From sequence record PX915678.1: a DNA stretch of 64,000 nt; one strand, 5' to 3'. The translations under genes and the position numbers were made by a program. Position 1 is the stretch's first letter. Every line of letters begins with the position of its first letter. Under the pieces are notes generated by a model. That model worked only from the letters and a program-made list of their open reading frames with translations, was not told the DNA's origin and did not search any database. This document shows positions 1,118 to 51,360 of the stretch, in pieces. Source of the DNA: a phage.

Positions 1118-1456
1118 TTAAAAGAATTTAAATTTTTTCTTTGACCTTTTATTAAATGCATCTTGCAGTTGCATTGTAATACATTTTTCTACATGAGGAG
1201 CTAACTCAGCTTTTCTTTCTTGGTCAAGAACAGCAAAGTCCATTACGACTTTTCCATCAACCCAATCTAATTTTGTCACATACACAATGTGTGTAGAACC
1301 GTCTTCTAGTTTAATGACAATCTCCTGGATAACATTTTCCATGGCAGATTTAATTATCTTAAGAGATTCATTAAAAAGACGTTCTTTTCTTTCTTCTTCC
1401 CCCTCCGAAGAGGGGGATTCATCGATAATTTCTAAATCTAAATCATCTTTATTCAT
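1118..1456 (-). CDS. 40: Small protein at the T4 gene 40 position (head vertex assembly chaperone-like)
   Basis: ORF between 41 and uvsX; ATG 1454-1456 directly after uvsX stop; track ORF extends to GTG at 1474; synteny 41-40-uvsX. Confidence 0.5.
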   Translation of the reverse strand: MNKDDLDLEIIDESPSSEGEEERKERLFNESLKIIKSAMENVIQEIVIKLEDGSTHIVYVTKLDWVDGKVVMDFAVLDQERKAELAPHVEKCITMQLQDAFNKRSKKKFKFF

Positions 1457-2630
1457 TAAATTCTTCCATATCACTTAACTGATCTAGGTCAGTTTCTAAA
1501 TCAGCAGCTGATTTACTTTTACTTTCTGGAGATTTAAATTTTTCAACCTTTGAGTTAATCAATTCATCAACTTCAGCTTCAACAATTTCATTACTATCAA
1601 TAGCACCTAACTGATAAGCGCGTTTAATAGCATCTCGGAATGGTTGATGCTTAAATAAAGGACCCCAGAATGTAGTGCAATTGGTATCTTTTGCACGCCA
1701 AGATTTTTCTTCGCGAATCATCTCGCCGGTTTCTTCATCAAGAAATTCACGAGCATACCAGCCATTTTTAGGTTTTACCACAAATCCTAATTCAAGAGCC
1801 ATATCTAACAATCCAGAATAAGGATCGATGCCACCGTCAAATTTAACATCAATAAAGAATTTACTTTTTTCTTTAACTGTACGAGATTTTTCTACATTTA
1901 GAACAAATTGATACCCCTGAAGATCGGAACCATCTTTAATCTGGCGCTTACCGATAATGAATACAGTATCAGCCGAATACATTACGCCTGTACCACCTGT
2001 CATCACGGTTTTACTAAACATTTCAATTGTTTCAATTGTATGGTTAACCGCAACACATGGAATGTTTTTAATACTAAAATAAGGAGTAACAATACGGAAT
2101 AATGACTTCAGTGATTTAGCACGAGTCATATCTGCCACAGATTTTTCATTTAAGGCATCTTCCGTTTCTTTCTTAGAAGCCATATTACCAATTGAGTCGA
2201 TGAATACAATAACTTTTTCACCGCGCTCAATAGCTTCAAGCTGATTCACCATATCAATTTTCAGCTGTTCAACTGACTGAATTGGTGTATGAATTACTCG
2301 TTCCGGGTCAACTCCCATGGATCGCAAATAAGCTGGAGTAATACCAAATTCGCTATCATAGAATAGACATACCGCGTCAGGATATTTGTTCAAATACGCC
2401 GCAACCATAGTCAAAGACATATTTGATTTAAAGTGTTTAGAAGGACCTGCAAAAATGGTTAAACCAGACTGCATACCACCATCAATCGCACCAGAAATAG
2501 CGATATTAAGCATTGGGATTTTTGTACGGATTACATCCTTTTCATTAAAGAATTTAGATGTAGTCAGTTCAGCAGTCATTTTAGAAGTGGAAGCTTTAAT
2601 CAAACGGGATTTTAAATCTGCAATAGACAT
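1449..2630 (-). CDS. uvsX: UvsX RecA-like recombinase
   Basis: 393-aa ORF; N-terminus and RecA-fold core (GPSKHFKSN) match T4 UvsX as recalled. Confidence 0.92.
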   Translation of the reverse strand: MSIADLKSRLIKASTSKMTAELTTSKFFNEKDVIRTKIPMLNIAISGAIDGGMQSGLTIFAGPSKHFKSNMSLTMVAAYLNKYPDAVCLFYDSEFGITPAYLRSMGVDPERVIHTPIQSVEQLKIDMVNQLEAIERGEKVIVFIDSIGNMASKKETEDALNEKSVADMTRAKSLKSLFRIVTPYFSIKNIPCVAVNHTIETIEMFSKTVMTGGTGVMYSADTVFIIGKRQIKDGSDLQGYQFVLNVEKSRTVKEKSKFFIDVKFDGGIDPYSGLLDMALELGFVVKPKNGWYAREFLDEETGEMIREEKSWRAKDTNCTTFWGPLFKHQPFRDAIKRAYQLGAIDSNEIVEAEVDELINSKVEKFKSPESKSKSAADLETDLDQLSDMEEFNE

Positions 2631-2707
2631 TCATTTTTTCCATAGGCATCATTATATTTTCCTCACTGGTTAAAGATAGAGTAATTATAACACAATAAAT
2701 TTAGGCA

Positions 2708-3556
2708 TTAATCAACTGCTATTGGATGAATAGCATTAAACTTATGAAACGCTTCTGATTTTTCTTTGCGCGAAACACACATGCGAAGAACCTTTAATGG
2801 CTCGTCTTCTTCACCCAACGATTTTCTCTTTTCAATATTCGATGTTTTCCAGCGAGCTTGCTCTGGAAACTCTCTATTGATTTGCTCAAGAGCTCTATTA
2901 TGTTTTGAATTACTACGAATTGAACTACATCCGCCAGGAGCTTGCGCTTTTCCGGATACAACCAGATATTTGAACAAGGCCAAATGCGGATAACCTTGAT
3001 TAATTAAATTGAGAAATGCATACATATCTTCGCATAAATCAATTTTTCCATACCCAATTTGTTCTGTTGTAAGTTTCCCGAGGTCATACCAAGTATTCGT
3101 GAATCCATATGAATTTTCACGATAATTACCCCAAGATGAAGTAATTTTAAAAATAGGCAGACGAGCATGACCATGATAATACCCGCAATCCATGGCATCT
3201 TCAACGTATTGAATCAATTCATAGAACTGTTCACGAGTTAACTGATTAATTTTATCTACGCAGCGACGATCATCTTTCTTTCGCATTGAACTCATACGAA
3301 TAGTAGTATCATCATCAATCATCCAAATTCGTTGACCTGCATACATATCAGTAATTGCTTTACGAGTACCAGCAATTCCATTAACATCATCAGGAATAGT
3401 TATAATTTTAGCTCTAGACCCGTAAGCGTCATAATAAGCTTTTTCTTCGTGTTCACGTACTACAATATGAGGTTCATAATCAGTCGGAAACATATCAAGG
3501 GCAGAAACTGCCCCTACGCGTTGATAGCTTGGAATTACGAATTGAATCATTTCCAC
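2708..3556 (-). CDS. Putative DNA-modifying glycosyltransferase at the beta-gt locus (not T4 beta-gt; possibly T2/T6-type beta-glucosyl-HMC-alpha-glucosyltransferase)
   Basis: 282-aa ORF between uvsX and 42 where T4 has 351-aa beta-gt; no resemblance to T4 beta-gt by eye; DDD motif (WMIDDDTT) typical of GT-A fold. Confidence 0.45.
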   Translation of the reverse strand: MEMIQFVIPSYQRVGAVSALDMFPTDYEPHIVVREHEEKAYYDAYGSRAKIITIPDDVNGIAGTRKAITDMYAGQRIWMIDDDTTIRMSSMRKKDDRRCVDKINQLTREQFYELIQYVEDAMDCGYYHGHARLPIFKITSSWGNYRENSYGFTNTWYDLGKLTTEQIGYGKIDLCEDMYAFLNLINQGYPHLALFKYLVVSGKAQAPGGCSSIRSNSKHNRALEQINREFPEQARWKTSNIEKRKSLGEEDEPLKVLRMCVSRKEKSEAFHKFNAIHPIAVD

Positions 3557-4287
3557 TCACCATTATAATCTTTTTTCGCAATATGAGTTTCGCCAGTTTT
3601 CCACCAATGGTCAACCAAATAAAAATGACGGGAATACACATGAAGGCTTCCGACATTCCATATAATGGAACCTGCTTTATACTGACGAGTTGAATCACCT
3701 GCATTCAAATCAGATACTAATTTATCTAGTACGTATTTTTGCCATGCATAATCATTACGGAATCCGAAGACCACGTCATTTGAACGCATGCTTACTACTG
3801 CATTGACTTTCTTATCACGAATCAGGTACTGTACTGTATTCGTACACATGAAATCTGACATACCATCTTTATTGTAGTCAAACTGCATGGATGGACGAGT
3901 ATAAATCATGATACCACGTCGAGAATCAGGATTTTGACCAAGTTCAGCTAAACACATATCATACTGGGCATAGTTATCTTCTGACCAGATGGCCCAACCA
4001 TAATTCGAGTTAATTTCGCCTTTAGAAGATGCTACCTGTTGCCAAATCTTCGGTGTTTCACCCGGAATATCTTTAACAAACAAACTTTTAGATTTATACC
4101 ATTCAAGTTCACGCTGAATGTATTCATCATTAAGAGCGCCAAAAATAAACGGTTCATCTGCTACAAATGATGCGCCAATAATTTCAATAGTTTTAACGCC
4201 AGTTTTATCAATTACGAAATCTTTTTCCTTTAACGCAATTCCCAAATGAAGACGAGTTTCTTCAACTGTCAAAGAGTCATTAATCAT
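3547..4287 (-). CDS. 42: dCMP hydroxymethylase gp42
   Basis: 246-aa ORF; near-identical to T4 gp42 as recalled; SD GAGG before ATG. Confidence 0.92.
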   Translation of the reverse strand: MINDSLTVEETRLHLGIALKEKDFVIDKTGVKTIEIIGASFVADEPFIFGALNDEYIQRELEWYKSKSLFVKDIPGETPKIWQQVASSKGEINSNYGWAIWSEDNYAQYDMCLAELGQNPDSRRGIMIYTRPSMQFDYNKDGMSDFMCTNTVQYLIRDKKVNAVVSMRSNDVVFGFRNDYAWQKYVLDKLVSDLNAGDSTRQYKAGSIIWNVGSLHVYSRHFYLVDHWWKTGETHIAKKDYNGEWK

Positions 4288-4394
4288 TTAAACCTCAATT
4301 GATACATTCATATTTAACTTGTAACAGTAATAAACCCCAACTTATAATAAGTGTCGGAATCATACAAGGAACCGTTACGCTATAGTATATACTT

Positions 4395-4421
4395 ATTATA
4401 ATCATCAAGATTAAAAGCAAT
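4395..4421 (-). promoter_or_regulatory. MotA-dependent middle promoter (TTGCTTTTA box, 11-nt spacer, TATAAT) upstream of gene 42
   Basis: Minus-strand ATTGCTTTTAatcttgatgatTATAAT fits the T4 middle promoter consensus. Confidence 0.55.
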
Positions 4422-4440
4422 ACTGTTAAAATTTTGCTTT

Positions 4441-4692
4441 TCATTCCTTCTCTCTGATGATAATTACTTGATTTGGTTGTGCGGATTTTTTAGTTTCACC
4501 CGCAATTGACCAAATAAATGTAATAAACCAACCAATAATTGACCAGTTAAACAGTAAAGATGTAAAAAAGATTCCTACTGTCGATTTTGACCCGCGCATC
4601 AAGGCGATGAACCATGGAAGCATGTATATAATAATAGCCAACACGCCTGATACTAAAACCATAAAAATTGAACCTGCTACTAAAGTTTCCAT
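4441..4692 (-). CDS. imm: Imm superinfection immunity membrane protein
   Basis: 83-aa ORF with two hydrophobic helices between 42 and 43, as in T4. Confidence 0.8.
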   Translation of the reverse strand: METLVAGSIFMVLVSGVLAIIIYMLPWFIALMRGSKSTVGIFFTSLLFNWSIIGWFITFIWSIAGETKKSAQPNQVIIIREKE

Positions 4693-4699
4693 GCTTTCC

Positions 4700-5092
4700 T
4701 CACTTAGTCAAATTTTTTACACATGAATTATAAGAATTCACTACATACTCCATCGGAGCATTTTTACCTGTGCGCCATTGGTAATTATTAGCCCAATTAG
4801 CCCAAAGTTCGGCGCAGTAGTTTTCAATTTTTTCTTCGCGTGTAATTACATCTGAATTACGATATGCTTGAGCAGATTCATCTGGACGAATAGCTTCGTC
4901 AAAATTCGCCTGCATTTGTTCTACTGTCTGTTTTGGAGCCTCTTTATAACACTTAACATTAGGATTATAAAATTTGCTTGAACAATTTACAGTTTTTCCT
5001 GCATCAGACTGATTTACTACCGGTCCTTGAGCTACACAACCAGTAAGACCCAATGCAATAACCAAAATAGCGATTTTCATTTCATTCTCCAA
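4700..5092 (-). CDS. Predicted lipoprotein, function unknown
   Basis: 130-aa ORF; signal peptide with lipobox LTGC (MKIAILVIALGLTGCVA); own early promoter upstream. Confidence 0.6.
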   Translation of the reverse strand: MENEMKIAILVIALGLTGCVAQGPVVNQSDAGKTVNCSSKFYNPNVKCYKEAPKQTVEQMQANFDEAIRPDESAQAYRNSDVITREEKIENYCAELWANWANNYQWRTGKNAPMEYVVNSYNSCVKNLTK

Positions 5093-5262: not shown

Positions 5263-7959
5263 TCAGCCAAACAGGAAGTCTAACGAAGCTTTTTCCTCAT
5301 AGTCCATACCTGCCGATTCACACATACCAGCAAGAGGTTTAACAAACGATTTTTGGAACAAAGTTGAGTAGTCAATCCAAGACAGTACGTCAGAACGAAT
5401 TTCTTTTGGAAGTTCTGTACCCGACGGCCAAGCAATGCACTTGTCACCAAACGGATTTCCTTCGCGTAATGGAAGAACCATTACCTTATTTCCATCCAAA
5501 ATTGGAGCTACACCTAAACCGCTAACAGCTCGACGATAAGTTAGCACACCGCGAATATGGAACGGGCATTTAAATCCTGGCCAGCCTTTATCATCATATT
5601 TCGCTATATCGTTCGCAGTTTTTACTTCAGCAATAACTTTATAGTCAAGTTGACGATATTCTTTCTCAAAGTTCTTGTAGTATTCTTGGACAGACTCTTC
5701 ACCTTCCTGAAGAATACGACGAATACTTTCTTCGAGAGCTTCTTGTACTGCTTTTGGTGTTGAACTCTGTTGAGTTTCCATACCCATGATTTTTAAATGC
5801 GGTTCGGCAAATCGCTTATCTTCCATATCATAAACGTTCAGAGCATAACGTTTTTTCGCTTTCCAAAATCCACCAACACCCTTTGAACCAAGTGGAGGGC
5901 AAGAAATAGCTTCACGGTCCATATGCATCAGATGCTCGCGGTTATTCATATAATCACATAACTCACGATATGCAACATCAATCATAGGTTCCATCTTTTT
6001 CTTACCAAACTGATTCATGAATTCAACTAAATCATTTTGTTCTTTAAAGCGATCAAGACCTACTTTTTCAATAACTTTATCTACACAAACATATACCGAA
6101 TCAGTATCACCTGCTGCGATGAAATCTTCACCATTAGTTCCACATACTTTATTTAGATACTCATTAATTTTACGAGCAATCCATTGAATACCGACTTGAC
6201 CGAAAATTGTGATAGCAGTAGCATTTCGCAAATCATAGTAGCGAAAATGAATATTACCAAGAGCACCATAAAGACTGTTAATAAGAATTTTACGGTTCAG
6301 CTGATTTGTGTTAGCAAGCGTAGCTGCTTTTTCACATTCTTCGATCAGACTATTAAGAACAGATTCAGTGTAATTCGATAATTCGTTTAAGAAATCATCA
6401 TTGAACTTAACATATCGTTCAACTTCCGGTTTAGTTGAACAGGACCCTGCACCTTTCATAATAATCTTTTTAATAGCTTCGGCATTCATTTCTTCCGCGA
6501 ACATTTTCTTTTTCCAATCTTTACGCTGGAAAAATACTTTAGCGATTTCCTTTGGAATGATACCTTCTTGGTGCTTATCATACATCCATCCATTCGGAGA
6601 GCAAGAATATTCATCACTTGGCTTAGGAGCTGTTCCTGCGATATATTCATGAATTGGATGAACTTTAAACTGCCCGCGAATAGTCTCAGGACTAATGTTA
6701 ACCTGACGAATAATGCTAGGATACAGAGACGTCAAGTCAAAACTCATAATGTATCGACGAGCAATCGGTTTAGGTTCAAACACAAATGCACCTGGAAAAC
6801 TCTGTTTAACGTGCAAACCTTGTTGAGGAATAACCTTATGTTCACCTTTCAGTGAGTTAAAAATAATAGCATCCCAAGTTTTAATAGGACTCATTACACC
6901 AGAAAAAGGCATTTTAGCGTAATAAGACATACTTAAAACTAGATCGATAAACCCACGAATTTTATCAATTGCTTGAACTGATTCTACGTCAATGATGTTA
7001 TAACTAATGTATCGTTGATGATTAGTCTCACGAAGTTTATTAATAGGACCATCGTACGGCAATTTACCTTTTTTGGTTTCATGCTGAGCAACTGATTCCA
7101 AAGAGAACGATGGCAAATTAGTAAATGCGAATTTCTTGTACAAATCTAAATAATCAAGAATAGATACGCCATCAATAGAATAAATTTCTTTGCTACCGTA
7201 CATATTTTGAATTAGTTTAGATTTTACTCGACCGATTGGAGAGAAGCGTTTCATACTGCGTTCGCCGAGAACCATTTTAACGCGATTCATGATATACGGA
7301 ACGTCAAATCCCTCAATATTCCAACCGGTAAAAATAGCAGGTCGTTTCTGTTCCCAGAGATTAATATATTCCATGAGCATATCACGCTCATTATCAAATG
7401 GCATATAAATTACTCGGTCAAGAATTTCTTGAGGAACTTCATCACCACCTTCACAGTCAAGCTTAGCAGCTAACTTTGCATCCCATTTTGATACTGAACC
7501 GTACATTGAATTCAACAAATCAAAGACGTAAAAACGATCGTCAATTGAATCATAATGAGTGATAGCATCAATTTCATATTCTGCTTTCATTGGGTCAGGA
7601 AATTTATCACCAGTAACCTCAATGTCACAGTTAGCTACACGAACAAATTTTCGGTCATAAACAATTTCTGAACCATATGTATCACTGATATAAGCGAGTT
7701 TAAAATCGTTCATACCGAGAGCTTCGAGACCGATGTCTTCCATTCGTTTCATCCAATCTCGTGCATCTTTCATTGATGGAAATTTTTGAGGAGCGCAATT
7801 TTTACCATAAATGTCTTTGTATTTTGACTCTTCCTTACAATGCCTAAACATAGTCGGAAGATATTCTACTTCACGAGTACGTTCCTTTCCATTTTCATCA
7901 ATATAACGCTCAACAATGTTATTTCCGACTGTTTCGATAGAGATATAAAATTCTTTCAT
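5263..7959 (-). CDS. 43: DNA polymerase gp43 (family B)
   Basis: 898-aa ORF, same length as T4 gp43; MKEFYISIETVGNNI N-terminus; exonuclease and polymerase motifs present. Confidence 0.95.
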   Translation of the reverse strand: MKEFYISIETVGNNIVERYIDENGKERTREVEYLPTMFRHCKEESKYKDIYGKNCAPQKFPSMKDARDWMKRMEDIGLEALGMNDFKLAYISDTYGSEIVYDRKFVRVANCDIEVTGDKFPDPMKAEYEIDAITHYDSIDDRFYVFDLLNSMYGSVSKWDAKLAAKLDCEGGDEVPQEILDRVIYMPFDNERDMLMEYINLWEQKRPAIFTGWNIEGFDVPYIMNRVKMVLGERSMKRFSPIGRVKSKLIQNMYGSKEIYSIDGVSILDYLDLYKKFAFTNLPSFSLESVAQHETKKGKLPYDGPINKLRETNHQRYISYNIIDVESVQAIDKIRGFIDLVLSMSYYAKMPFSGVMSPIKTWDAIIFNSLKGEHKVIPQQGLHVKQSFPGAFVFEPKPIARRYIMSFDLTSLYPSIIRQVNISPETIRGQFKVHPIHEYIAGTAPKPSDEYSCSPNGWMYDKHQEGIIPKEIAKVFFQRKDWKKKMFAEEMNAEAIKKIIMKGAGSCSTKPEVERYVKFNDDFLNELSNYTESVLNSLIEECEKAATLANTNQLNRKILINSLYGALGNIHFRYYDLRNATAITIFGQVGIQWIARKINEYLNKVCGTNGEDFIAAGDTDSVYVCVDKVIEKVGLDRFKEQNDLVEFMNQFGKKKMEPMIDVAYRELCDYMNNREHLMHMDREAISCPPLGSKGVGGFWKAKKRYALNVYDMEDKRFAEPHLKIMGMETQQSSTPKAVQEALEESIRRILQEGEESVQEYYKNFEKEYRQLDYKVIAEVKTANDIAKYDDKGWPGFKCPFHIRGVLTYRRAVSGLGVAPILDGNKVMVLPLREGNPFGDKCIAWPSGTELPKEIRSDVLSWIDYSTLFQKSFVKPLAGMCESAGMDYEEKASLDFLFG

Positions 7960-14895: not shown

Positions 14896-14916
14896 CTAAA
14901 GGGCCGAAGCCCTTTA
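14896..14916 (-). terminator. UUCG-tetraloop hairpin after agt
   Basis: AAAGGGCUUCGGCCCUUU overlapping the agt stop codon. Confidence 0.5.
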
Positions 14917-16116
14917 TTTTGTAATAATGTCAAACTGTTCTTTAAAGCAGAAGCTTGAATCTTGATGCTGATACAAAAATTCATAAGCTTTTTCGCGTTC
15001 ACGGTCATAAAGATTTCGGTCAGATGACAGTTCTTTAATACGCTCAAATGTTGATTCCATGTCATTTTCATCAAACCAAACGATACCGCTATCATGAGAA
15101 ATTAACGGAGTATTATCAACACGGAATTTTAAATTTTCGCCAGTAGATTTCCAAAATACTGGAATTGTTCCACACGCACCAAGCTCGAGATGAGTATATT
15201 CTAAAGAACGTTGTAGATATTTTTTATCCAACTTACTCAACTGATAACCAAATCCGGATTTACTCATACGTTCAAGCATTTCGCTATTTACATAACGGTC
15301 AAGAATTTGCGTTGGCAAATTAGGAGCAATTTTAATTTGGTCTACTTGATGAAGACGATAATACTCGTATGGAATTCCTTTTTCTTTAATAGGAATGAAC
15401 GCTGGAGAACGTTCCAGACCTTCCATAATAGTACTTAATCCAGCAGGTTTAAGATGTTTTTCGTGAAAATCAAACATCTGATAAAAACCTTTCCATGTAG
15501 TCGTACGACCGATCCAACGGTTGACATTCATATTAATTTCAGAAACATCTTTCCAGTAGGTTGATCGAACCTTCGCAATATCCATAGGAGGCTGAAAGTT
15601 GTATACAGTCGGTGCTTCTTCAATATCATCAAACAGAGAAACTGTTTCTGGATACCATTCTTTCATCAGAACTTTATTAAAATCACCATTATCAGAATGA
15701 CTAAAAATAACATCAGCTCGGCGAACAGTTTCTTCTAATCCCAAATTTCGACGCAAAGAAAGAGAAGAATGGTCATGTTGATAAACTACAACACGAACCG
15801 AAGGTTTAATGTTATCAATAATTTTTTTATAGTTATTAATAGTGTCTTCTTCGACTGAAGTAGCAGGAACTGAATTGATAATTAGAATATCACAATCATT
15901 TACCAGCTTAAGTGTTTTATCGTATTCTTTTGCCAATAAAACCGGAATTGAAAATGATTTATAATCATGCGCGCAATTACGGGTAAATGATTTATCTTTA
16001 GCATAAACCAAAGTTACTTCATGACCATTTTTAATAAACCAATCACGTTGCTCAAGAGAAAATTTAGTTACGCCACAACCTTCAAGACCTCGAGCCATAA
16101 AAATGCATACTTTCAT
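14914..16116 (-). CDS. agt: DNA alpha-glucosyltransferase
   Basis: 400-aa ORF; sequence matches T4 alpha-gt as recalled; position between 47 and 55. Confidence 0.88.
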   Translation of the reverse strand: MKVCIFMARGLEGCGVTKFSLEQRDWFIKNGHEVTLVYAKDKSFTRNCAHDYKSFSIPVLLAKEYDKTLKLVNDCDILIINSVPATSVEEDTINNYKKIIDNIKPSVRVVVYQHDHSSLSLRRNLGLEETVRRADVIFSHSDNGDFNKVLMKEWYPETVSLFDDIEEAPTVYNFQPPMDIAKVRSTYWKDVSEINMNVNRWIGRTTTWKGFYQMFDFHEKHLKPAGLSTIMEGLERSPAFIPIKEKGIPYEYYRLHQVDQIKIAPNLPTQILDRYVNSEMLERMSKSGFGYQLSKLDKKYLQRSLEYTHLELGACGTIPVFWKSTGENLKFRVDNTPLISHDSGIVWFDENDMESTFERIKELSSDRNLYDREREKAYEFLYQHQDSSFCFKEQFDIITK

Positions 16117-16165
16117 TTAATATCCTCATTGTTTTGGTTTATTTTACCAAAAATTTATAAAGCAA

Positions 16166-20151: not shown

Positions 20152-20622
20152 TTAATCATGTTTCCACACCCCATCGGTATTTGACCAAAGTCGCTGATTA
20201 TCTGATCCTCGCCACAGCTTTTTAGTCGGAAGATTTTTCTCATACTTCCCATCAATAATAACATCAACATATTTAAGCATTTCTAGTTGTTTAATATCTT
20301 CAAATTTATATCCTGTCCACAACCAAATGCTTTTATTTGGATAAAGATTTTTTACTGTTTGAACAATGCAATGAACAACATCTCGGTTATCAGGATAGAG
20401 AGGGTCTCCTCCAGTTATAGTTAATCCTTCTATATAATCATTATTCAAACATTCAATTAATTGTTCCAGCGTTTCACCAGTGAATGGAACACCGTTTCTA
20501 GCATTCCATGTTGATTTATTATAACATCCTTCGCATTTATGCAAACAACCTGTAACGAAAAGAACGACCCTGCATCCAGGGCCATTCACAAAATCACAGG
20601 GATAAAATCTATCATAATTCAT
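20152..20622 (-). CDS. nrdG: Anaerobic ribonucleotide reductase activase NrdG (radical SAM)
   Basis: 156-aa ORF; CxxxCxxC cluster (GCLHKCEGC). Confidence 0.9.
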   Translation of the reverse strand: MNYDRFYPCDFVNGPGCRVVLFVTGCLHKCEGCYNKSTWNARNGVPFTGETLEQLIECLNNDYIEGLTITGGDPLYPDNRDVVHCIVQTVKNLYPNKSIWLWTGYKFEDIKQLEMLKYVDVIIDGKYEKNLPTKKLWRGSDNQRLWSNTDGVWKHD

Positions 20623-22436
20623 TGGTGTTTAACCCTATGCATGATTTCTTTATTTTTGCCGAGATTAAATCCGCGTTCATTCGGATTTCCCAAATAACCA
20701 CAAGTTCTTCTTATTGTGTTCATCTTTTTAGGATCAGTTTCTCCACAAATAGAACAAACAAACCCGTTTTCAGTAGGAGTCATTTCATGGGTACTTCCAC
20801 ACGTAAAACATTTATCTACTGGCATGTTAACACCAAAATAATCTAAATGTTGTGCAGCATAATCCCATACAGCCTCAAGACCTTTTAGGTTATTTTTCAT
20901 ATCAGGAAGTTCAACATAAGAAATGTGACCACCTGTCGCAATGAAATGATATGGAGCTTCGCGAGAAATCTTTTCAAACGGAGTAATATTTTCTTCTACT
21001 GAAACATGGAAACTATTAGTGTACCAGCCTTTATCAGTAACATCTTTTACACTTCCATATTTTTCAGTATCAAGTTTACAGAAGCGATAACAAAGGTTTT
21101 CAGCAGGAGTAGAATACAAGCTAAAAGCAAAACCGGTTCTTTCAGTCCACTGCTTAAGACGAGCATTCATTTTAGTTAAAATTTCCTGTCCAATATCACG
21201 ACCGACAAGAATATTCAATTCGTGAATACCAATGTATCCTAGGGACACTGAACTTCTACCGTTTTTAAATAACTCAATTATGTCGTCATCAGGTTTAAGA
21301 CGAACCCCGAATGCACCTTCTTGGTAAAGAATAGGAGCAACAGTCGCTTTAACTCCTTTTAAGGAACTAATTCTACACATTAAAGCTTCAAAACATAAAT
21401 CCATTCGCTCATTGAACAATTCGGCAAATTTCTGTTCATTGAATTGTGTTCCAATATAAGAATCTAACGCAATACGAGGAAGATTCAGTGTTACAACACC
21501 AAGATTATTACGTCCATCAAGAATTTCATTACCAGTCGAATCTTTCCATACGCTTAAGAAACTACGGCAACCCATTGGAGAAACAGGAATAGATGAACCA
21601 GTGATAGCTTTATTGTTCTTAGCTGAAATAATATCAGGATACATTCTTTTGCTTGCACACTCTAGAGCAAGCTGCTTAATATCATAGTTCGGATCATCTT
21701 TATAAAGATTAACACCTTCTTCAACGAACATAACAAGCTTAGGGAAAATAGGAGTTATCCCATCGCGACCAAGACCTTTAATACGATTTTTCAGAATTGC
21801 TTTCTGAATCATTCGTTCAGTCCAGTCAGTTCCCGTACCAAATGTAATTGTTACAAAAGGCGTTTGTCCGTTTGAACTAAAAAGAGTATTTAGTTCATAT
21901 TCATAAGCTTGGAATGCATCGTATACGTCTTTTTCTGTTTTAGATTGGGCATAATTCAACGCATCAGCGATTTGCCATTTTTCTGCATCCTCAATATGTT
22001 TTGCATAGGTGCGTTTAACATAAGGAGAAAGTACTTTATCTACATTCGCAAAAGTCGTTCCGCCATATTGATGGGAAGCAACCTGTGCAGTAATTTGTGC
22101 CATAATTGCAGTAGCAACGCCGATTGATTTAGGAGTTTCAATCTGTGCATTGCCGAGCTTAAATCCGTTTTCAAGCATTCCTTTTAAATCTACTAAACAA
22201 CAATTAGTAAATGGAAGAGCAGGGGAATAATCAATATCGTGGAAATGGATAATTCCGCTTTCATGCGCTTTCATAATAAAAGACGGGACCATATTTTTGG
22301 CAATGTGTTTAGACACAATACCAGCCATAAGGTCCCGTTGAGTTGGAAAAACACGAGAATCTTTATTAGCATTCTCGTTTAAAAGGTCTTTATTAGTTTT
22401 ATGAATCAATCCTTCAATTTCTTTTTCAATTGTCAT
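20619..22436 (-). CDS. nrdD: Anaerobic ribonucleotide reductase NrdD (glycyl radical enzyme), uninterrupted
   Basis: 605-aa continuous ORF; C-terminal Zn ribbon and RxxGY glycyl radical motif (RRTCGYLGNP). Confidence 0.93.
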   Translation of the reverse strand: MTIEKEIEGLIHKTNKDLLNENANKDSRVFPTQRDLMAGIVSKHIAKNMVPSFIMKAHESGIIHFHDIDYSPALPFTNCCLVDLKGMLENGFKLGNAQIETPKSIGVATAIMAQITAQVASHQYGGTTFANVDKVLSPYVKRTYAKHIEDAEKWQIADALNYAQSKTEKDVYDAFQAYEYELNTLFSSNGQTPFVTITFGTGTDWTERMIQKAILKNRIKGLGRDGITPIFPKLVMFVEEGVNLYKDDPNYDIKQLALECASKRMYPDIISAKNNKAITGSSIPVSPMGCRSFLSVWKDSTGNEILDGRNNLGVVTLNLPRIALDSYIGTQFNEQKFAELFNERMDLCFEALMCRISSLKGVKATVAPILYQEGAFGVRLKPDDDIIELFKNGRSSVSLGYIGIHELNILVGRDIGQEILTKMNARLKQWTERTGFAFSLYSTPAENLCYRFCKLDTEKYGSVKDVTDKGWYTNSFHVSVEENITPFEKISREAPYHFIATGGHISYVELPDMKNNLKGLEAVWDYAAQHLDYFGVNMPVDKCFTCGSTHEMTPTENGFVCSICGETDPKKMNTIRRTCGYLGNPNERGFNLGKNKEIMHRVKHQ

Positions 22437-23125: not shown

Positions 23126-23589
23126 TAAAACGCTCGGTCAGAAAAAGAATTTTGAGTTTCAAGCCATTCAATATATTCTGCCGCAGCTTGCATTAAATTT
23201 CCTTCATAACCATCGTTATTTTCTTGTGCAGCTAATTTAGCTAATGCGTATGAAATACGTTCACCTTGAAAAGCGGCTTCAGGTTTCCGAATAACTTGAC
23301 TAGTTCGTTCTACAACTTCTTCAATTTCGCCATTTTCTACTGATTCAGTATTCCACAAGCACCAATACGTAATTGGCTTATCGTAAATGTTAATAATCTT
23401 TCCATCAGAAAGTTCAATTTCAATAATTCCAGTATCAGGTTCTATATCATCTTCGCATTCTTTTGTAAGTTCACGAACTTTAAAGACAGTACCTGCACTA
23501 AGTTCCGGCCAATAATTACACAGCCCTTTATCAGCACGATTAATTCTAAACCACTTATCTACTGTAATCATGTCCCATCTCCATATCAA
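23125..23589 (-). CDS. Hypothetical protein
   Basis: 154-aa ORF upstream of 49. Confidence 0.5.
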   Translation of the reverse strand: MIWRWDMITVDKWFRINRADKGLCNYWPELSAGTVFKVRELTKECEDDIEPDTGIIEIELSDGKIINIYDKPITYWCLWNTESVENGEIEEVVERTSQVIRKPEAAFQGERISYALAKLAAQENNDGYEGNLMQAAAEYIEWLETQNSFSDRAF

Positions 23590-23694
23590 TTAAGTCATTT
23601 ATCGTTGGTTCATTATATACTGTTTCTTCATCAGTGTAAACCGGTTCTTCCGGCTCTGGCTCTACTGTTTCCCATCTAGCCGCCCACCAAGGTT

Positions 23695-24015
23695 TTATAG
23701 CGTAATCCATTCTCGTACTGTCTGAGTTACTACACGTTCACGGGGCTCGACTAGTTCAACAGTCGGAACTGCATAATACCAGTCAGAATGGTAAGAACCT
23801 GAGCGAGTTTCATTTACAGACACATGAACGTTATGTTTTGGACTAAAATAAATGCACTGACGATATTGGCATTTACCATCTTGCACCCAGTCTTCTATTT
23901 CGATAGGTTTAAGATAATCCGAAAAATCGAAATCATAATTTTCTGAAAATGCATCATGGTCTTCGATGATTTCACTCAGAACTGCATCAACATCTAATTT
24001 ATTTTCAATAGTCAT
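23695..24015 (-). CDS. Hypothetical protein
   Basis: 106-aa ORF. Confidence 0.5.
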   Translation of the reverse strand: MTIENKLDVDAVLSEIIEDHDAFSENYDFDFSDYLKPIEIEDWVQDGKCQYRQCIYFSPKHNVHVSVNETRSGSYHSDWYYAVPTVELVEPRERVVTQTVREWITL

Positions 24016-24025
24016 TTTTCACCAA

Positions 24026-24196
24026 TTAATTTCGCAATTTATTAAGTTCTTCATAATCAATCCAGGATTCTAGTCCTGATGGCAAATCAGATTCAATTTC
24101 CCAAAGAAGTTCTTCAATTTTCTGAAGACGATCTAATTCTTCAGCAGGAATAGTAACCATTGACGGAGTTCTTGATGCACTAATATCGTAAATCAT
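24026..24196 (-). CDS. Hypothetical small acidic protein
   Basis: 56 aa from ATG 24194-24196; track ORF extends to 24235 but overlaps its neighbour. Confidence 0.35.
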   Translation of the reverse strand: MIYDISASRTPSMVTIPAEELDRLQKIEELLWEIESDLPSGLESWIDYEELNKLRN

Positions 24197-24198
24197 AT

Positions 24199-24414
24199 TT
24201 ATCCCAATTTGACCATACAATCGCCATATTTCCATTTAGAAATAGACTTTTCACCATTAGAATAATAAACTTCAAGTTTAGCACGGTTATTTTTAATTTG
24301 AATAACCTTGGCTGTCATCAAAGTTCCATACCCATAGTAAACTGCAACTTCATCACCTACATATACCGCGCTTCCGCGGTAGTCATGGATATAATCAGTT
24401 CCTTCGAGCATCAT
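24199..24414 (-). CDS. Hypothetical protein
   Basis: 71-aa ORF; ATGA overlap with nrdC stop. Confidence 0.45.
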   Translation of the reverse strand: MMLEGTDYIHDYRGSAVYVGDEVAVYYGYGTLMTAKVIQIKNNRAKLEVYYSNGEKSISKWKYGDCMVKLG

Positions 24415-24674
24415 TTAAAGTATTCCCGCAATTGGTCAAATCCGCCAATATGACTTCCACCAGGAGCAAATACTTGTGGCATCGTCAGTCCAATTTGAGT
24501 ATCACGACCTAGTTTCGTTAGAAGCTCAGCGATTTTCTCATCATCAAAAACACCTTTTTCCGGCATAATGTTGATAAATTCAAATGGCTGTTTCTTTACA
24601 GTCAAAAGACGTTTTGCATTATCGCAATACACACATTTATGGATGTTGCTATCATAACCATATACTTTAAACAT
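24411..24674 (-). CDS. nrdC: Phage thioredoxin/glutaredoxin NrdC
   Basis: 87-aa ORF with CVYC redox motif; matches T4 NrdC as recalled. Confidence 0.85.
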   Translation of the reverse strand: MFKVYGYDSNIHKCVYCDNAKRLLTVKKQPFEFINIMPEKGVFDDEKIAELLTKLGRDTQIGLTMPQVFAPGGSHIGGFDQLREYFK

Positions 24675-24675
24675 A

Positions 24676-24918
24676 TTATTCCTTAATTCCTAGTACTTGT
24701 TTAAAAGTCTCATCGTAATCAAGACTTTGGCCCGTTTGCTCTTTATGTTTGTATATAATATCACTTACTTCTGATAGCATATTTTTATATGAACGAGTTA
24801 AAGCAGATTTAAGCACGCTGTATCTATCAGGAAATTTACCATGTTCATTATAATACGCTATTGCTAATTCGCGGACTGCCTTTTCAGCAATCTCCATATA
24901 TTCTTTACGCTTTGTCAT
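24676..24918 (-). CDS. Hypothetical protein
   Basis: 80-aa ORF. Confidence 0.5.
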
Positions 24919-24920
24919 TT

Positions 24921-25310
24921 TTAATCCAAAATATTATTAGGCATTGGTTGAACACTCGCAAGTTCTTTAAAGAACTCAGTAGAGTCAGGTAATTTAACCA
25001 TTTCCGGAGCATGCTTGCTAAATTTGTGTTTACAATGACGGCATTTATATTCAAGTTCCGGTTTACGCCAGTTAATCAATTGAACCTGTTCAGTACCGCA
25101 TTCAGGACAATTAGGAACATTTTTAGAAGCCCTTTCGCGACGTTCAACCATAGCTATAATAGCATCCCAGGCTGGAGGTTTAAAGTCTAAATCATCACAA
25201 CCATGAATCTTTCCACGCATTTCTAAATCGTCTTCTTCACCAGCCATAATAATTTTAATTAGACTGGAATTACTTGAAGCTGCAATATCTTCTAATAGAC
25301 GCTTTTTCAT
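24921..25310 (-). CDS. Zinc-ribbon protein, function unknown
   Basis: 129-aa ORF with CPECG...CRHCKH four-Cys ribbon. Confidence 0.5.
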
Positions 25311-26233
25311 TTCAGTACCTCAATAGCATCACGTAAACCATTTGCTTTGGCGGTTAAAGCCTTAAGAACTTTAGTATGCTCTTCAATCTGTTTTTCAACT
25401 TCAATCAAACGGGCACTGAGATATTCGCGTTCTTCTTTCATAGTATCATTCCCATGATTGGGCTTTGGTGCAGATTTAAATTTACTAGGGTCCTTTAACT
25501 TAATAACAACTTTAGTTTCAAACAGTGAAAGACCATAATTCGTATTATCATCAAAGGATTCAACTACGTCCATTTTAGACAATAACGTACGAAGATTATA
25601 AGTCAAAGAACGAATCGTTTTATTATGTTTATTAGCTTCACGCGGTTTCATATATGGAAGATTTTTATATATTTCATGCGGAGCACAAACAATAATTGAC
25701 AATTCAAATGGTCCATTCTGTGATGATGGAATGAATTTAGCCGTAACCCAATCTTTTACATTTACATTAATAGTACGGTCATCGCCATGACAAAACAGTC
25801 TACGAGAATGCTTAAAAAGCATATTCACATTATTATTAAATTCGTGTGAAAACTCACTAGCAAATTTTTCTTTACTATTTTTAGAAAACCATTCTTCTAA
25901 ATAAGTTCTTTTCACGTCATTAATAATATTAAATGTAACAACATTAGCATTTGATACATTAGTCTCAATGTAGCTTGGATACATAAATTTTTTAACATTA
26001 TTAACAGCTATCACAGAAGATAGTAATCGGGAACGTTTGAACCACTCTAGCAAAGAACCAAGAGAATGTGAATATGCATTTTGTGTATCTTTACAAATAT
26101 GGTTTTCCCATCCAATATAGTCTAAAAAATCACGAAGAATATTATTGATTACTGCTCTGTGTCCGATCTGATAATTACGGTGTTTAGTAATAAGACTGTC
26201 AAAATAATCAATATAATGTTTACGAGTTTTCAT
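25307..26233 (-). CDS. Paralog family member A: globular domain plus C-terminal coiled coil
   Basis: 308-aa ORF, MKTR N-terminus, RSRLLS motif, C-terminal heptad segment; SD before ATG. Confidence 0.6.
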   Translation of the reverse strand: MKTRKHYIDYFDSLITKHRNYQIGHRAVINNILRDFLDYIGWENHICKDTQNAYSHSLGSLLEWFKRSRLLSSVIAVNNVKKFMYPSYIETNVSNANVVTFNIINDVKRTYLEEWFSKNSKEKFASEFSHEFNNNVNMLFKHSRRLFCHGDDRTINVNVKDWVTAKFIPSSQNGPFELSIIVCAPHEIYKNLPYMKPREANKHNKTIRSLTYNLRTLLSKMDVVESFDDNTNYGLSLFETKVVIKLKDPSKFKSAPKPNHGNDTMKEEREYLSARLIEVEKQIEEHTKVLKALTAKANGLRDAIEVLK

Positions 26234-26285
26234 GTTCTTCTCACTTGGTTAATGATTTATGCTCCGAGCCATCCTTGGCTTTAAA

Positions 26286-27287
26286 TTACTTAATTAACTG
26301 TAAAGCTTGTTCAAGACGATCCAGGCGATTAACAGATTCTTCCCAAATCCTTTTAGCCTGCTCATATTCTTTCTGCGCTTTATTAGAAATTTCTAGAACT
26401 TCTTTATAAGCCTTTTCTAGTGCAATAACTTCTGGACGAATTTCTACAGGTTCAGGCGAATCATCAAGATTATCCATTAGTTCCTCAAGTGTAATTTCTT
26501 CTTTAGGAGTATTCACAATTTCATCACATTTTTGTTGGTAAATTTCTTTATCAGTCGGTGAGTACGCACATTTCACTTCACGAAGACTAACTACAATTTT
26601 ATATCCTTCCCAACCGCATATATTCTTAAAAGGATACGTATGAATATTTTCTACTGTTTCCATACAAAGTAATGCGGTTTCTAATTGACGAGTTATAGTG
26701 CTAGCAATTGAGAAAAATTTATTAATGTTCTTTTGGTTAGTTTCTGGTGTAAAAAATCCATAATTCACAAAAATAGATACTTTATTTTTATCAAGTTCAT
26801 ATTCTTTTATGATAATCATATCAGAAGCCAAAGGATGAATTTGACGATAATCGCCATAACATAATTTAGAAGCTGATTTTAGAATCTGTCCTTTGAAAAG
26901 TCTGAAATTACTAATCCAACGACGAGTAAAAATATTCTCAGGGTCTTCTTTATTATTAAGATGATAAGAATTAACATCACCGAACCAATTATATCCTACT
27001 ACATCTTTGGTTCGTTTAATTTCTTTCCCAAAATTACCAAGAATATCCCGATTAACCAAATATGAAAGAAGACGAGACTCTTTAAAGGTTTTCTTGATAA
27101 CATCTTTATCTACACGGCTAGAAATTTTACGAATTTCATGAATAAATTTAACAGAAGAAACAATACTTGCGTCAACACTATTGAGCCATTGATTGATAAT
27201 AGAAATAACGCTATTTTGACCAAACATCGGTATAGCTTTATCATCAATAACACTATTGAATGATTTGATATATTCGTTACGAGTCAT
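26286..27287 (-). CDS. Paralog family member B
   Basis: 333 aa from ATG 27285-27287 (SD GAGGAG); MTR N-terminus, ESRLLS motif, C-terminal coiled coil. Confidence 0.6.
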   Translation of the reverse strand: MTRNEYIKSFNSVIDDKAIPMFGQNSVISIINQWLNSVDASIVSSVKFIHEIRKISSRVDKDVIKKTFKESRLLSYLVNRDILGNFGKEIKRTKDVVGYNWFGDVNSYHLNNKEDPENIFTRRWISNFRLFKGQILKSASKLCYGDYRQIHPLASDMIIIKEYELDKNKVSIFVNYGFFTPETNQKNINKFFSIASTITRQLETALLCMETVENIHTYPFKNICGWEGYKIVVSLREVKCAYSPTDKEIYQQKCDEIVNTPKEEITLEELMDNLDDSPEPVEIRPEVIALEKAYKEVLEISNKAQKEYEQAKRIWEESVNRLDRLEQALQLIK

Positions 27288-32825: not shown

Positions 32826-33283
32826 TCAGCCTTATATTCAATAACAGGACATACTTTAGCTTTACGCGCTTTTAAAAATTCGACGATAATAGATTTCTTG
32901 GGTTGAATAGGAGGTAAACCTTTATACGCCCTATCAATATTTTCTACATGTAAAGCATAATCCTTTTTCCATTTATAATCTTTATATTTTTCATGCAGTT
33001 GTGCAGGAATAACAAATGAACCAATAATAAGTAAAACAAGCAAAATGGCAAGTATAAATGCTGATGGAATAAGAGTCCATAAACTACCAAAAATAAGCCA
33101 TTTCTGCATGATTTCCGCACAGATAATAGTTAGACCTGCGAGTATAGTACATCCGAAAAAAGAAACGAAAAATGTAGGGATAACAATAGACCAAAAGTAT
33201 GCACACAGTGTCTTAGGTCGTTTCCATTCATCATTAAACAGTTTGAATAATTTATAGTGCCAAGAGTTTTCATTAATAATCAT
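32822..33283 (-). CDS. Integral membrane protein
   Basis: 153-aa ORF with about three hydrophobic helices. Confidence 0.5.
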   Translation of the reverse strand: MIINENSWHYKLFKLFNDEWKRPKTLCAYFWSIVIPTFFVSFFGCTILAGLTIICAEIMQKWLIFGSLWTLIPSAFILAILLVLLIIGSFVIPAQLHEKYKDYKWKKDYALHVENIDRAYKGLPPIQPKKSIIVEFLKARKAKVCPVIEYKAE

Positions 33284-33285
33284 AA

Positions 33286-33807
33286 TTATCCTTTCATTGA
33301 AGGTGTAACAGTTGTTAAATACTTAATCATAGCTTCAGCTTCTGATTTTGATAATGAAATTTCTCCATTGTTTTGACGAATAGAAATAAAATCCGGATGA
33401 CGGTCACCACCAGCTTTTAAAATACACATATAAGTATCAGTTTCATCTTCAATATCTGAAATAATTGAAGCAGTTCCACATGAATGTGGTTTTTGATAAA
33501 TCAATGCAGCTTTTCTTCCACCGTTTGACTGTTCATAAACTTTTAACACATCAAACAAATCGCTTCTTTTATCAATAGCTAAGATGTTGTTTTCATCTTC
33601 AATGTTAAATCCTTCGGATACTTCATAAAGTGTCACCCATAAATCACCTATATCGATAGTAGCATTTCCTTTTCCACGACTTTCAAGAATATGACAAATT
33701 TTCTTGATTTCGTCATAACTCATTTTAATAATATCATCTCCTTGAATAAGGAAGATGTCATTTTTAAATTCAACGCGAATTAAACCACTTCCACTTGAAA
33801 TAAACAT
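33286..33807 (-). CDS. Hypothetical protein (paralog pair with 33814-34368)
   Basis: 173-aa ORF; C-terminus SKSEAEAMIKYLTTVTPSM resembles the neighbour's TKDEAIALKTYLDSVIPTM. Confidence 0.5.
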   Translation of the reverse strand: MFISSGSGLIRVEFKNDIFLIQGDDIIKMSYDEIKKICHILESRGKGNATIDIGDLWVTLYEVSEGFNIEDENNILAIDKRSDLFDVLKVYEQSNGGRKAALIYQKPHSCGTASIISDIEDETDTYMCILKAGGDRHPDFISIRQNNGEISLSKSEAEAMIKYLTTVTPSMKG

Positions 33808-37213: not shown

Positions 37214-37222
37214 ATCACCTTC

Positions 37223-37408
37223 TTAAAGCGTATTCACATAAGCTATTAATTCATTTTCTTTCTTATCAAACCGATCAGCAAATTCTTCCTGCTGTTCGGG
37301 AGATAGCGGGCCGTATTCATCATAAAAGGTGTTTGCTTCTGTATGCTCATCTAGAAGTTCATGGATAAGCTCAAACAATTTATCTTTTTGTTCTTTACTC
37401 AGACTCAT
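37223..37408 (-). CDS. Hypothetical acidic protein
   Basis: 61-aa ORF. Confidence 0.5.
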   Translation of the reverse strand: MSLSKEQKDKLFELIHELLDEHTEANTFYDEYGPLSPEQQEEFADRFDKKENELIAYVNTL

Positions 37409-37578
37409 ATATTAATTTCCAGGAGTTTTAAAATAATTCGCTTTTGCTTAAATATTTCCACAGTTAAATGATCAGTATCTTTTTGACCGATTCCAATGGC
37501 AAAACCTTTATTAACAGCGAGTTCAATTAAATTATCAAGTTCACGTAACACTTCATATTGTAGCTCAGAACTATTCAT
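37405..37578 (-). CDS. Hypothetical 57-aa protein (below track threshold)
   Basis: SD GAAGG before ATG 37576-37578; ATGA overlaps at both ends. Confidence 0.45.
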   Translation of the reverse strand: MNSSELQYEVLRELDNLIELAVNKGFAIGIGQKDTDHLTVEIFKQKRIILKLLEINI

Positions 37579-37802
37579 TTCGGTTTACCTTCTTTAACGA
37601 AATCAGGATAAGGATAAAATCCTGAATAAAATCCTTCACCTTTGTGATTGGTGCATCCTTTATTAGAACAATAGCACCAATAATCGAAATCACAAGTCAT
37701 TTCATCATTACATAAAGCAAAAACAACTGGCCATTCACACTTTTCGCAGTGGGCATTTTTAAGAATACTAGTTTGGCTCATAACCATGTAACCTTTAAGC
37801 AA
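37575..37802 (-). CDS. Cys-rich small protein (likely zinc-binding)
   Basis: 75-aa ORF with 9 Cys (CEKCEW...CNDEMTCDFDYWCYCSNKGC). Confidence 0.5.
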   Translation of the reverse strand: MLKGYMVMSQTSILKNAHCEKCEWPVVFALCNDEMTCDFDYWCYCSNKGCTNHKGEGFYSGFYPYPDFVKEGKPK

Positions 37803-41997: not shown

Positions 41998-42471
41998 TTA
42001 TTTGAATGATTTGACGTACTGAATAGAGCCTTTGCTATTCACGAAAGCGATTTTACCATTTTTGTTATACATGGTAGCAGTACGCTGATAACCATAAGTT
42101 TGTTTACCAGATTGATAACCAACTAATGCGAAATTATCTTCACCCATTTTATTCTGCTTAGCGCGGATACGTTCATGACCGTGTGCCATAAGAACCTTAG
42201 CGTCGCCAGTTGCAATGGATCTACGAGTTTTTTCATCTTCAACTGTATTAACAAAATCGTCAAATGAATCAAATTTAGCATGAGATTTATTATACAGTTT
42301 TCCATCTACTGCATAATTATATCCCTGTACATCCATCTCAACTTCTGTACCATCATCCAATACAGCAGTGATTTTTTGACCTTTTTTAAATTTCAAAAGA
42401 TCAGTAAAAGATTCAGCGATAATTTGAGAATTAATAGCTGCTTCAGTGATAAATTCTTGATATGTTTTCAT
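41998..42471 (-). CDS. Internal head protein (IPII/IPIII-like) with capsid-targeting sequence
   Basis: 157-aa ORF starting MKTYQEFITEA, the T4 CTS cleaved by head protease; late promoter at 42506. Confidence 0.7.
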   Translation of the reverse strand: MKTYQEFITEAAINSQIIAESFTDLLKFKKGQKITAVLDDGTEVEMDVQGYNYAVDGKLYNKSHAKFDSFDDFVNTVEDEKTRRSIATGDAKVLMAHGHERIRAKQNKMGEDNFALVGYQSGKQTYGYQRTATMYNKNGKIAFVNSKGSIQYVKSFK

Positions 42472-42897: not shown

Positions 42898-42917
42898 TTT
42901 ATCCCTCCAAGTAACTG

Positions 42918-46377: not shown

Positions 46378-46419
46378 AGTATTTCCTTAGGTTGATTAAA
46401 AATAAAATCTGTGGAAGAA

Positions 46420-46965
46420 TTATATCATACTATTTAAGAGATGTAAACTATTTTTAATTTTACAAATTCGTTCAGCTTCTTCAACGGCGGCGGCGATAAT
46501 GCTTTTAGCTATAGGAGTACTAATACTAGTAGCTTTTACACTTAACACGATTTCTTTATCTTTACTAGGCCAACCCCATGATTTTTCACCATGAGTGCCT
46601 TTAATTACAGCAGACACCTCAAGTGAGCATCCACTGTCACATGTTTTTACATTAACAACCCAAGGGTCACTTTTCTCAACCGATTTCTCAGCCGGTTTAT
46701 CCCAGTAAATATTAAGAATACGTGGGACATCAAATTTAGCAGGGCAAATCTTAACTGTAAGACCTTCGCTTTCTAGCCAATTAATAAGAGGGCGTTCATA
46801 CATGCGGCGATGTGGGCTTTGGACTCGACAAGCCTTGTGCCCATTGCTTGCGGCTTCACTAAGCTGTTCTAATACCTGTTTTTGCATTATTGATAAGATA
46901 TCATCAAAAGATTTTTCGGAAGTTTCATTCAGTTCGGTATAAAGAGACATAACGGTTTTCCTCAA
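46420..46965 (-). CDS. Hypothetical protein
   Basis: 181-aa ORF. Confidence 0.5.
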   Translation of the reverse strand: MRKTVMSLYTELNETSEKSFDDILSIMQKQVLEQLSEAASNGHKACRVQSPHRRMYERPLINWLESEGLTVKICPAKFDVPRILNIYWDKPAEKSVEKSDPWVVNVKTCDSGCSLEVSAVIKGTHGEKSWGWPSKDKEIVLSVKATSISTPIAKSIIAAAVEEAERICKIKNSLHLLNSMI

Positions 46966-47506: not shown

Positions 47507-47512
47507 AGAATG

Positions 47513-47986: not shown

Positions 47987-48026
47987 CTTATTTCCTGTTT
48001 TAATTCGTGGATTTAATATACTACTA

Positions 48027-48034
48027 TATTTATA
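48027..48034 (-). promoter_or_regulatory. Late promoter (TATAAATA)
   Basis: Exact TATAAATA on minus strand about 40 nt upstream of ATG 47986. Confidence 0.6.
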
Positions 48035-48722: not shown

Positions 48723-48738
48723 ATTTTCCTCACTTAAT

Positions 48739-48814: not shown

Positions 48815-48818
48815 TATT

Positions 48819-48893: not shown

Positions 48894-48897
48894 AAAT

Positions 48898-51102: not shown

Positions 51103-51360
51103 TTATTTTAAATCTTCTAATCGTTTCTTCATCTTAGAACCGTTCTTAGCGATTTCGCCTGCATCTGAGCATAATGCTAAAAGTGCTTTAACTTTAGTTT
51201 GGTCTCCTTTAAAAGATGAAGGATCGACTGCAGCAGCAAGTTCTTTAATACGAGAGAAAAGACGCTCAGCTTCAGCTAAAGCCATTCCAAGCTTTACTTC
51301 CATACCGTGGGAAGATTCAGTGATAGTAGTTTTTGTAGCAAACTCTTTGAAAGTTTTCAT
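51103..51360 (-). CDS. Internal protein I-like small protein (candidate injected anti-restriction protein)
   Basis: 85-aa ORF starting MKTFKEFATK (CTS-like) at the T4 ipI position between tRNAs and 57B. Confidence 0.5.
   Translation of the reverse strand: MKTFKEFATKTTITESSHGMEVKLGMALAEAERLFSRIKELAAAVDPSSFKGDQTKVKALLALCSDAGEIAKNGSKMKKRLEDLK

Follow-up and report, generated by a model that had tools for sequence, protein, structure and literature searches.

Which glucosyltransferase does a T4-like phage encode when the site of the T4 beta-glucosyltransferase gene, between uvsX and gene 42, is occupied by a different gene? The question is raised by a 64,000-nucleotide stretch of phage DNA (record PX915678.1; the whole stretch analyzed is referred to below as the window). 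An earlier note, made from the letters alone, had likened the gene found at this site to the enzyme with which T2/T6-type phages add a second glucose to alpha-glucosyl-hmC. The results described below indicate that the window gene very probably encodes the T2/T6-type beta-glucosyl-HMC-alpha-glucosyltransferase (beta-alpha-GT, also named ba-gt, ggt or TAGT), which we take to correspond to EC 2.4.1.28. Gene, product and distribution are all already published, and nothing about this widely annotated textbook gene is new. The present analysis covers sequence identity with T2 and T6, family membership, fold class, residue conservation, gene neighbourhood and the presence of alpha-gt; the pathway chemistry and the T6 deletion phenotypes are taken from the literature.

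Gene position, start codon and overlap with gene 42

The mechanical list of open reading frames places the candidate on the minus strand at 2708..3556, with a GTG start and 282 aa, and confirms that it is flanked by uvsX and gene 42, as the earlier note had described; gene 43 lies further along at 5263..7959. The presence of the frame at this site is secure; its strand, which is minus, has to be added to the earlier description, and its length calls for revision, probably to 280 aa. An ATG at 3550 (3550-3548) opens the same frame, which closes with the stop codon at 2708-2710. This ATG and the gene 42 TGA (3549-3547) overlap in an ATGA, and a Shine-Dalgarno-like GGTGAG lies 5 nt before the ATG, abutting the upstream GTG. 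The N-termini of all homologues read MIQF.. or M(K/Q)(Y/H)IQF.., and both T2 annotations of the gene give a 280-aa product that starts with MIQF. Taken together, the overlap, the spacing of GGTGAG, the homologous N-termini and the T2 annotations make the ATG at 3550 the most likely start, and the GTG start was rejected in its favour.

The ATGA overlap further implies co-transcription of beta-alpha-GT with gene 42, the dCMP hydroxymethylase gene, and the translation of the two is probably coupled. The annotations of homologous records agree on the identity of gene 42, whose matches to the thymidylate-synthase family are weak. A scan of positions 2400-4800 for promoter and terminator consensus sequences, with the T4 middle and early promoter types outside its scope, returned 13 sites, no excess over the 10.3 +/- 3.4 of shuffled sequence, and it supports no regulatory conclusion.

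Between gene 42 and imm, a minus-strand ORF at 4295-4444 encodes a hydrophobic product of 49 aa that belongs with PHROG 3610, a group of unknown function (E=5e-25). NC_000866 shows no gene annotation in the homologous interval of T4, 26220-26372.

Table 1. Coordinates of the features discussed in the text, in window numbering.
Feature	Position	Strand	Basis or remark
uvsX recombinase, downstream neighbour defining the locus	1449..2630	-	ORF; homology to T4 uvsX
Segment without T4 DNA homology, 946 bp	2619..3564		blastn; stands for T4 23556-25496 (segA + beta-gt, 1941 bp)
beta-glucosyl-HMC-alpha-glucosyltransferase CDS	2708..3550	-	280 aa
E174-D175 'ED' motif codons	3026..3031	-	D175 in 85/85, E174 in 66/85
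DDD (D79-D81), GT-A DxD motif	3308..3316	-	sequence; conservation; follows strand E74-79 of the model
R11 codon, N-terminal IPSYQR motif	3518..3520	-	Arg in 85/85; His in all T2 records
ATGA overlap of beta-alpha-GT and gene 42	3547..3550	-	read from sequence
In-frame upstream GTG, source of the 282-aa ORF	3554..3556	-	probably not the true start
Gene 42, dCMP hydroxymethylase	3547..4287	-	ORF; ~95% DNA identity to T4 gene 42
alpha-gt	14914..16116	-	Pfam AGT PF11440, 781 bits, profile 1-354/355
Internal virion protein, 157 aa, upstream of denV	41998..42471	-	PHROG 3155; leader-bearing
Internal head protein, 85 aa, ipI locus	51103..51360	-	PHROG 3499; leader-bearing

Replacement of T4 segA and beta-gt

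The window was compared by blastn with T4 20000-79000, a stretch beyond which window positions 57129-64000 fall. On either side of the beta-alpha-GT locus the two sequences are 92-95% identical. T4 homology ends at window position 2618 and restarts at 3565, so that one breakpoint lies in the opening codons of uvsX and the other in the closing codons of gene 42. Judged from this alignment, the beta-alpha-GT segment stands in for T4 segA and beta-gt as a clean cassette replacement without homology. At the same site T4 carries segA besides beta-gt, whereas in the window only a 77-bp spacer separates beta-alpha-GT from uvsX.

The earlier note had seen no similarity to T4 beta-gt, and alignment bore this out. 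BLASTP against the 351-aa T4 protein (NC_000866) returned chance fragments (best E=3.4), and tblastn found no relative of T4 beta-gt anywhere in the 64-kb window (best E=8.4). PF09198, the family of T4 beta-gt, is not among the Pfam matches of the 280-aa protein, of which PF20691 is the only significant one. The two enzymes are nevertheless analogous in position and in function, since they share the same genomic site and the window enzyme, like T4 beta-gt, is predicted to attach glucose from UDP-glucose to modified phage DNA through a beta-glucosidic bond. They differ in acceptor, which is hmC for T4 beta-gt and, by prediction, alpha-glucosyl-hmC for beta-alpha-GT, and in fold, T4 beta-gt being a GT-B enzyme (PMC13216743) and the beta-alpha-GT model a single-domain GT-A.

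Across the window, no counterparts were found of the T4 homing-endonuclease genes segA, mobB and mobC or of the nrdD group I intron with I-TevII. T4 homology simply closes up at 2631-2707 (where the 77-bp spacer takes the place of segA), 16107-16132, ~20602-20622 and 21898-21901. Seven further stretches of the window have no blastn match to T4 20000-79000, namely 32827-33788, 37214-37776, 46395-46954, 47508-48031, 48373-49052, 49677-50196 and 53533-54200.

Identity with the T2 and T6 enzymes

The window protein is nearly indistinguishable from the second glucosyltransferase of T2 and T6. A tblastn search gives 98.2% identity to T2 (AP018813) and 97.5% to T6 (MH550421, gene 'ggt'), each at 100% coverage; compared residue by residue, 276 of 280 and 274 of 280 are identical. 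The identity with the T2/T6-type enzyme that the earlier note had left unverified is now verified by sequence, the alignment it called for having revealed 4 differences in 280 positions from T2 and 6 in 280 from T6. The substitutions relative to T2 (window/T2) are R11/H, K92/R, I101/V and P251/S; those relative to T6 MH550421 (window/T6) are Q10/stop, Y40/N, D55/G, K92/R, I101/V and R106/H. R11 is the sole conserved position among all these differences, and the window carries the family-consensus residue there. T2 and T6 also have the same uvsX, beta-alpha-GT and gene 42 arrangement, the same ATGA overlap and the same partner alpha-gt; DNA identity with them is ~95%, leaving allelic differences only. 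Cloning and sequencing of the gene from both phages dates from 1993 (Winkler & Ruger, NAR 21:1500, as cited in PMC11946311).

The same gene is widespread. A megablast search with positions 2600-3700 returned 545 phage records, of which 473 cover the locus DNA to 80% or more, and many of these records annotate the ORF as 'beta-glucosyl-HMC-alpha-glucosyltransferase'. PHROG 842, which bears the same name, matches the window protein with E=1.9e-89. With the beta-alpha-GT protein as query, tblastn returned 690 records, among them hundreds of natural isolates at 95-100% identity; a second tier, at 63-66%, comprises T4-like phages of Klebsiella, Enterobacter and Salmonella, in which the gene always adjoins the dCMP hydroxymethylase gene. 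Five related loci in IMG/VR are all 98-99% identical and confirm the presence of R11 and the DDD motif in natural sequences. The first 25 kb of the window share ~98% identity with many Tequatrovirus isolates, among them Sfk20, ADUt, pSs-1 and ime09.

The partner enzyme is likewise in place. The canonical alpha-gt reported by the earlier note proved to be a full-length PF11440 match (Table 1), 90.5% identical to T4 alpha-gt. Among published genomes, alpha-GT or beta-GT together with TAGT is the usual pairing, the T4 pair of alpha- and beta-GT occurring in only 6 of 753, and alpha-gt with TAGT is the common state in Tequatrovirus (PMC13216743).

Family, fold and conserved residues

The window protein belongs to Pfam family PF20691, the TET-associated glycosyltransferases (TAGT), with a score of 38.8 bits where the cut-off is 27.5, E=1.2e-9 and a match that extends over profile positions 2-205 of 205. 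Its homologues bear precomputed PF20691 assignments. The modest score marks beta-alpha-GT as a divergent member of the family, one that nonetheless passes the gathering cut-off over the full profile and shares the family-invariant residues. The window enzyme has no TET/JBP dioxygenase beside it and represents the Tequatrovirus branch, which acts after alpha-gt and a hydroxymethylase of the thymidylate-synthase-like kind (gene 42). NCBIfam lacks a model for beta-alpha-GT and its family. A word-indexed protein search recovered 11 relatives only, and an exhaustive profile search was needed to gauge the true size of the family: 2146 clusters at 50% identity have E<=1e-3 and 738 have E<=1e-10, nearly all members being 250-310 aa long.

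Conservation was evaluated by aligning 85 diverse members of the family with 19-64% identity to the query. Five residues (R11, D80, D175, G186 and G207) are invariant in 85 of 85 sequences, and 90% or more of the sequences share I6, P7, R63, D79, D81, L180, G206 and R212; all of these residues are present in the window copy. The GT-A-like motif WMIDDDTT, to which the earlier note had drawn attention, is there with its DDD intact and is conserved as a DxD motif (D79 in 84 of 85 sequences, D80 in 85 of 85 and D81 in 84 of 85). The DDD is the predicted site for a divalent metal and the UDP-glucose diphosphate. By analogy with GT2 enzymes, D175 of the 'ED' motif is a candidate for the catalytic base in an inverting GT-A reaction, and an inverting mechanism fits a beta product formed from UDP-alpha-glucose.

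A structural model was computed with AlphaFold2 from 10 homologues and has moderate overall confidence (pTM 0.75, mean pLDDT 70.9), pLDDT falling below 50 in four segments (residues 87-100, 130-149, 194-210 and 278-280). The N-terminal half is confident and Rossmann-like, with alternating strands and helices up to strand 74-79, after which comes the DDD. The earlier note had allowed for a protein without any glycosyltransferase fold; the model instead matches GT-A folds. It has the single Rossmann-like domain of a GT-A enzyme, with the DxD at the end of a central beta-strand, and not the two-domain arrangement of a GT-B enzyme. A Foldseek search against viral models (BFVD) returned a Klebsiella phage beta-alpha-GT as the best match, followed by TAGT-domain proteins and GT2 enzymes. 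A published AF3 model of the T6 TAGT is also a GT-A, sister to GT2, and the same study equates the enzyme with PF20691/TAGT (PMC13216743).

Comparison with solved structures gives fainter signals. The single protein, searched against the PDB, produced chance matches only (best E=0.76), and no family relative with a solved structure was found there. With the 85-sequence profile, the GT2 beta-1,3-glucosyltransferase 9jma was the single meaningful hit, and a weak one (E=0.046), IPSY.R pairing with IPTYNR and DDD with DDDD. In that profile search a de novo TIM barrel outscored 9jma and was rejected, no stretch passing by itself. Inverting GT-A enzymes of the GT2 family (AvpGT 9jma, BcsA 9fmv and SpsA 1h7l) are only 7-15% identical to beta-alpha-GT. 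They act on lipid-linked or polysaccharide acceptors, whereas beta-alpha-GT would act on DNA-linked glucose, and they have no confident counterpart of its C-terminal third, which contains the conserved GGCS..R at residues 206-212.

Proposed pathway and specificity

Together, the genes of the window outline a three-step route to a disaccharide on DNA. Gene 42 would first produce hm-dCMP, and hmC would enter the phage DNA during replication. The alpha-gt product would then use UDP-glucose to glucosylate hmC in alpha linkage, giving alpha-glucosyl-hmC, to whose glucosyl group beta-alpha-GT would add a second glucose, again donated by UDP-glucose and joined in beta-1,6 linkage, giving gentiobiosyl-hmC. 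We infer from the gene content that the DNA of the window phage contains gentiobiosyl-hmC. HPLC/MS of Tequatrovirus phages in which alpha-gt is accompanied by a TAGT syntenic with T4 beta-gt detected hmdC, alpha-glucosyl-hmdC and alpha-gentiobiosyl-hmdC, and no beta-glucosyl form (PMC13390438). A T6 delta-ba-gt mutant contains alpha-glucosyl-hmC only (PMC11078745). The most likely decoration of the window phage is accordingly a mixture of free hmC, alpha-glucosyl-hmC and gentiobiosyl-hmC that is devoid of beta-glucosyl-hmC.

The occupation of the T4 beta-gt position could also be read to mean that the enzyme differs in specificity from its T2 and T6 counterparts, either beta-glucosylating hmC directly, as a GT-A substitute for T4 beta-gt, or using another sugar donor. 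Specificity is indeed not uniform across the wider family, given that TAGT homologues occur with alpha-GT, with beta-GT or alone (PMC13216743). A changed specificity is, however, highly improbable for a protein that differs by 4-6 residues from the genetically characterised T2 and T6 enzymes, the differences from T6 being at no conserved position. It would also conflict with the bases found in phages with the same gene set, which are alpha-linked mono-glucosyl and gentiobiosyl forms and include no beta-glucosyl-hmC (PMC13390438). The T2/T6-type activity thus remains the preferred assignment for the window enzyme.

Alleles in T2 and T6 stocks and the level of gentiobiosylation

Carriers of the gene differ widely in how much of their hmC is gentiobiosylated: the values are 5% for T2, 72% for T6 and ~40% for the Durham phages (PMC13390438, PMC11078745). 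With carriers ranging from ~5% in T2 to 72% in T6, the gentiobiosyl fraction of the window phage cannot be read from its sequence.

Several sequenced stocks bear changes at critical positions of the gene. R11H, a single G>A change (CGT>CAT), is present in all T2 records, including AP018813 (L003:4007-4849) and MH751506 (L006:4286-5128), and in the T2-like SV76; it amounts to 8 of 50,697 records, with no others, and the window has R11 at the corresponding codon (3518-3520). In T6 MH550421 (L002:4001-4849), codon 10 of 'ggt' is an in-frame amber (CAG>TAG). This amber accounts for the 261-aa annotation of that gene, which begins at an internal Met and is without the first beta-strand and IPSYQR. 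In a second, independent T6 record, AP018814 (L005:4135-4974), one GAT of GATGATGAT is lost, converting DDD to DD (DD-T) in a product of 279 aa. The occurrence of different changes at critical positions in two T6 stocks suggests that selection on the gene was relaxed or negative while the phage was passaged in the laboratory; an error of sequencing or assembly is a possible alternative. The T6 sequence that served as the TAGT query in the published survey was the RefSeq protein YP_010067197.1 (PMC13216743).

None of these three changes (R11H, the codon-10 amber and the loss of one Asp from the DDD) occurs in the window copy or in the five IMG/VR relatives. Since it has the consensus arginine of the family at position 11, keeps its DDD and is free of premature stops, the window copy would be expected to be active. 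Lesions are common enough in sequenced stocks, as the T2 R11H, the MH550421 amber and the AP018814 Asp loss attest, and T2 DNA is gentiobiosylated to such a low level (~5%), that a weak or dead gene deserves consideration for the window phage as well. Its DNA would then contain essentially alpha-glucosyl-hmC and unmodified hmC, as may be the case in some T2 and T6 laboratory stocks. We regard such a state as very unlikely, because the window gene is full length, retains R11, DDD, D175, G186, G206-G207 and R212, and has a sequence typical of natural isolates, hundreds of which match it at 95-100% identity. With all invariant residues intact, a pseudogene or inactive copy was rejected for the window in favour of an active beta-alpha-GT.

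The R11H substitution could, on the strength of the conservation of this position, explain the low gentiobiosyl content of T2. A broader proposition is that the allelic state of beta-alpha-GT, rather than other features of the genome, sets the level of gentiobiosylation in T-even phages, T2 being low through R11H and the window phage high, in the manner of T6. We consider this proposition tentative and rather doubtful.

Defence systems

A bearing of this gene on evasion of restriction and defence, which the earlier note had anticipated, is documented in the literature (PMC13390438, PMC13216743, PMC11078745, bioRxiv 10.64898/2026.02.25.707755), and the likely hmC decoration allows predictions about defences that depend on DNA modification. 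In vitro, gentiobiosyl-hmC is resistant to the glycosylase Brig1; the T6 delta-ba-gt mutant is more sensitive to Brig1, and its DNA is a Brig1 substrate in vitro (PMC11078745). Gentiobiosyl-hmC likewise withstands the deglucosylating enzyme BapA, which releases glucose from T6 delta-g-gt DNA and not from wild-type T6 DNA (bioRxiv 10.64898/2026.02.25.707755). If beta-alpha-GT alleles did set the level of gentiobiosylation, the window phage would have T6-like in vitro resistance to Brig1 and BapA, with the enzyme itself no different from the known one.

The reported targets of GmrSD are the two stereoisomers of glucosyl-hmC as well as gentiobiosyl-hmC, and the T4 internal proteins IPI, IPII and IPIII are reported GmrSD inhibitors (PMC13216743). 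T4-type IPI, IPII and IPIII were not found in the window, where the only matches were to the MKT(F/Y).EF capsid-targeting leader, carried by the two internal proteins of Table 1. Because the T4 proteins are reported to inhibit GmrSD, their absence is as relevant to type IV restriction as the glucosyltransferase is. The site of T4 ipII and ipIII corresponds to window positions ~42901-42908.
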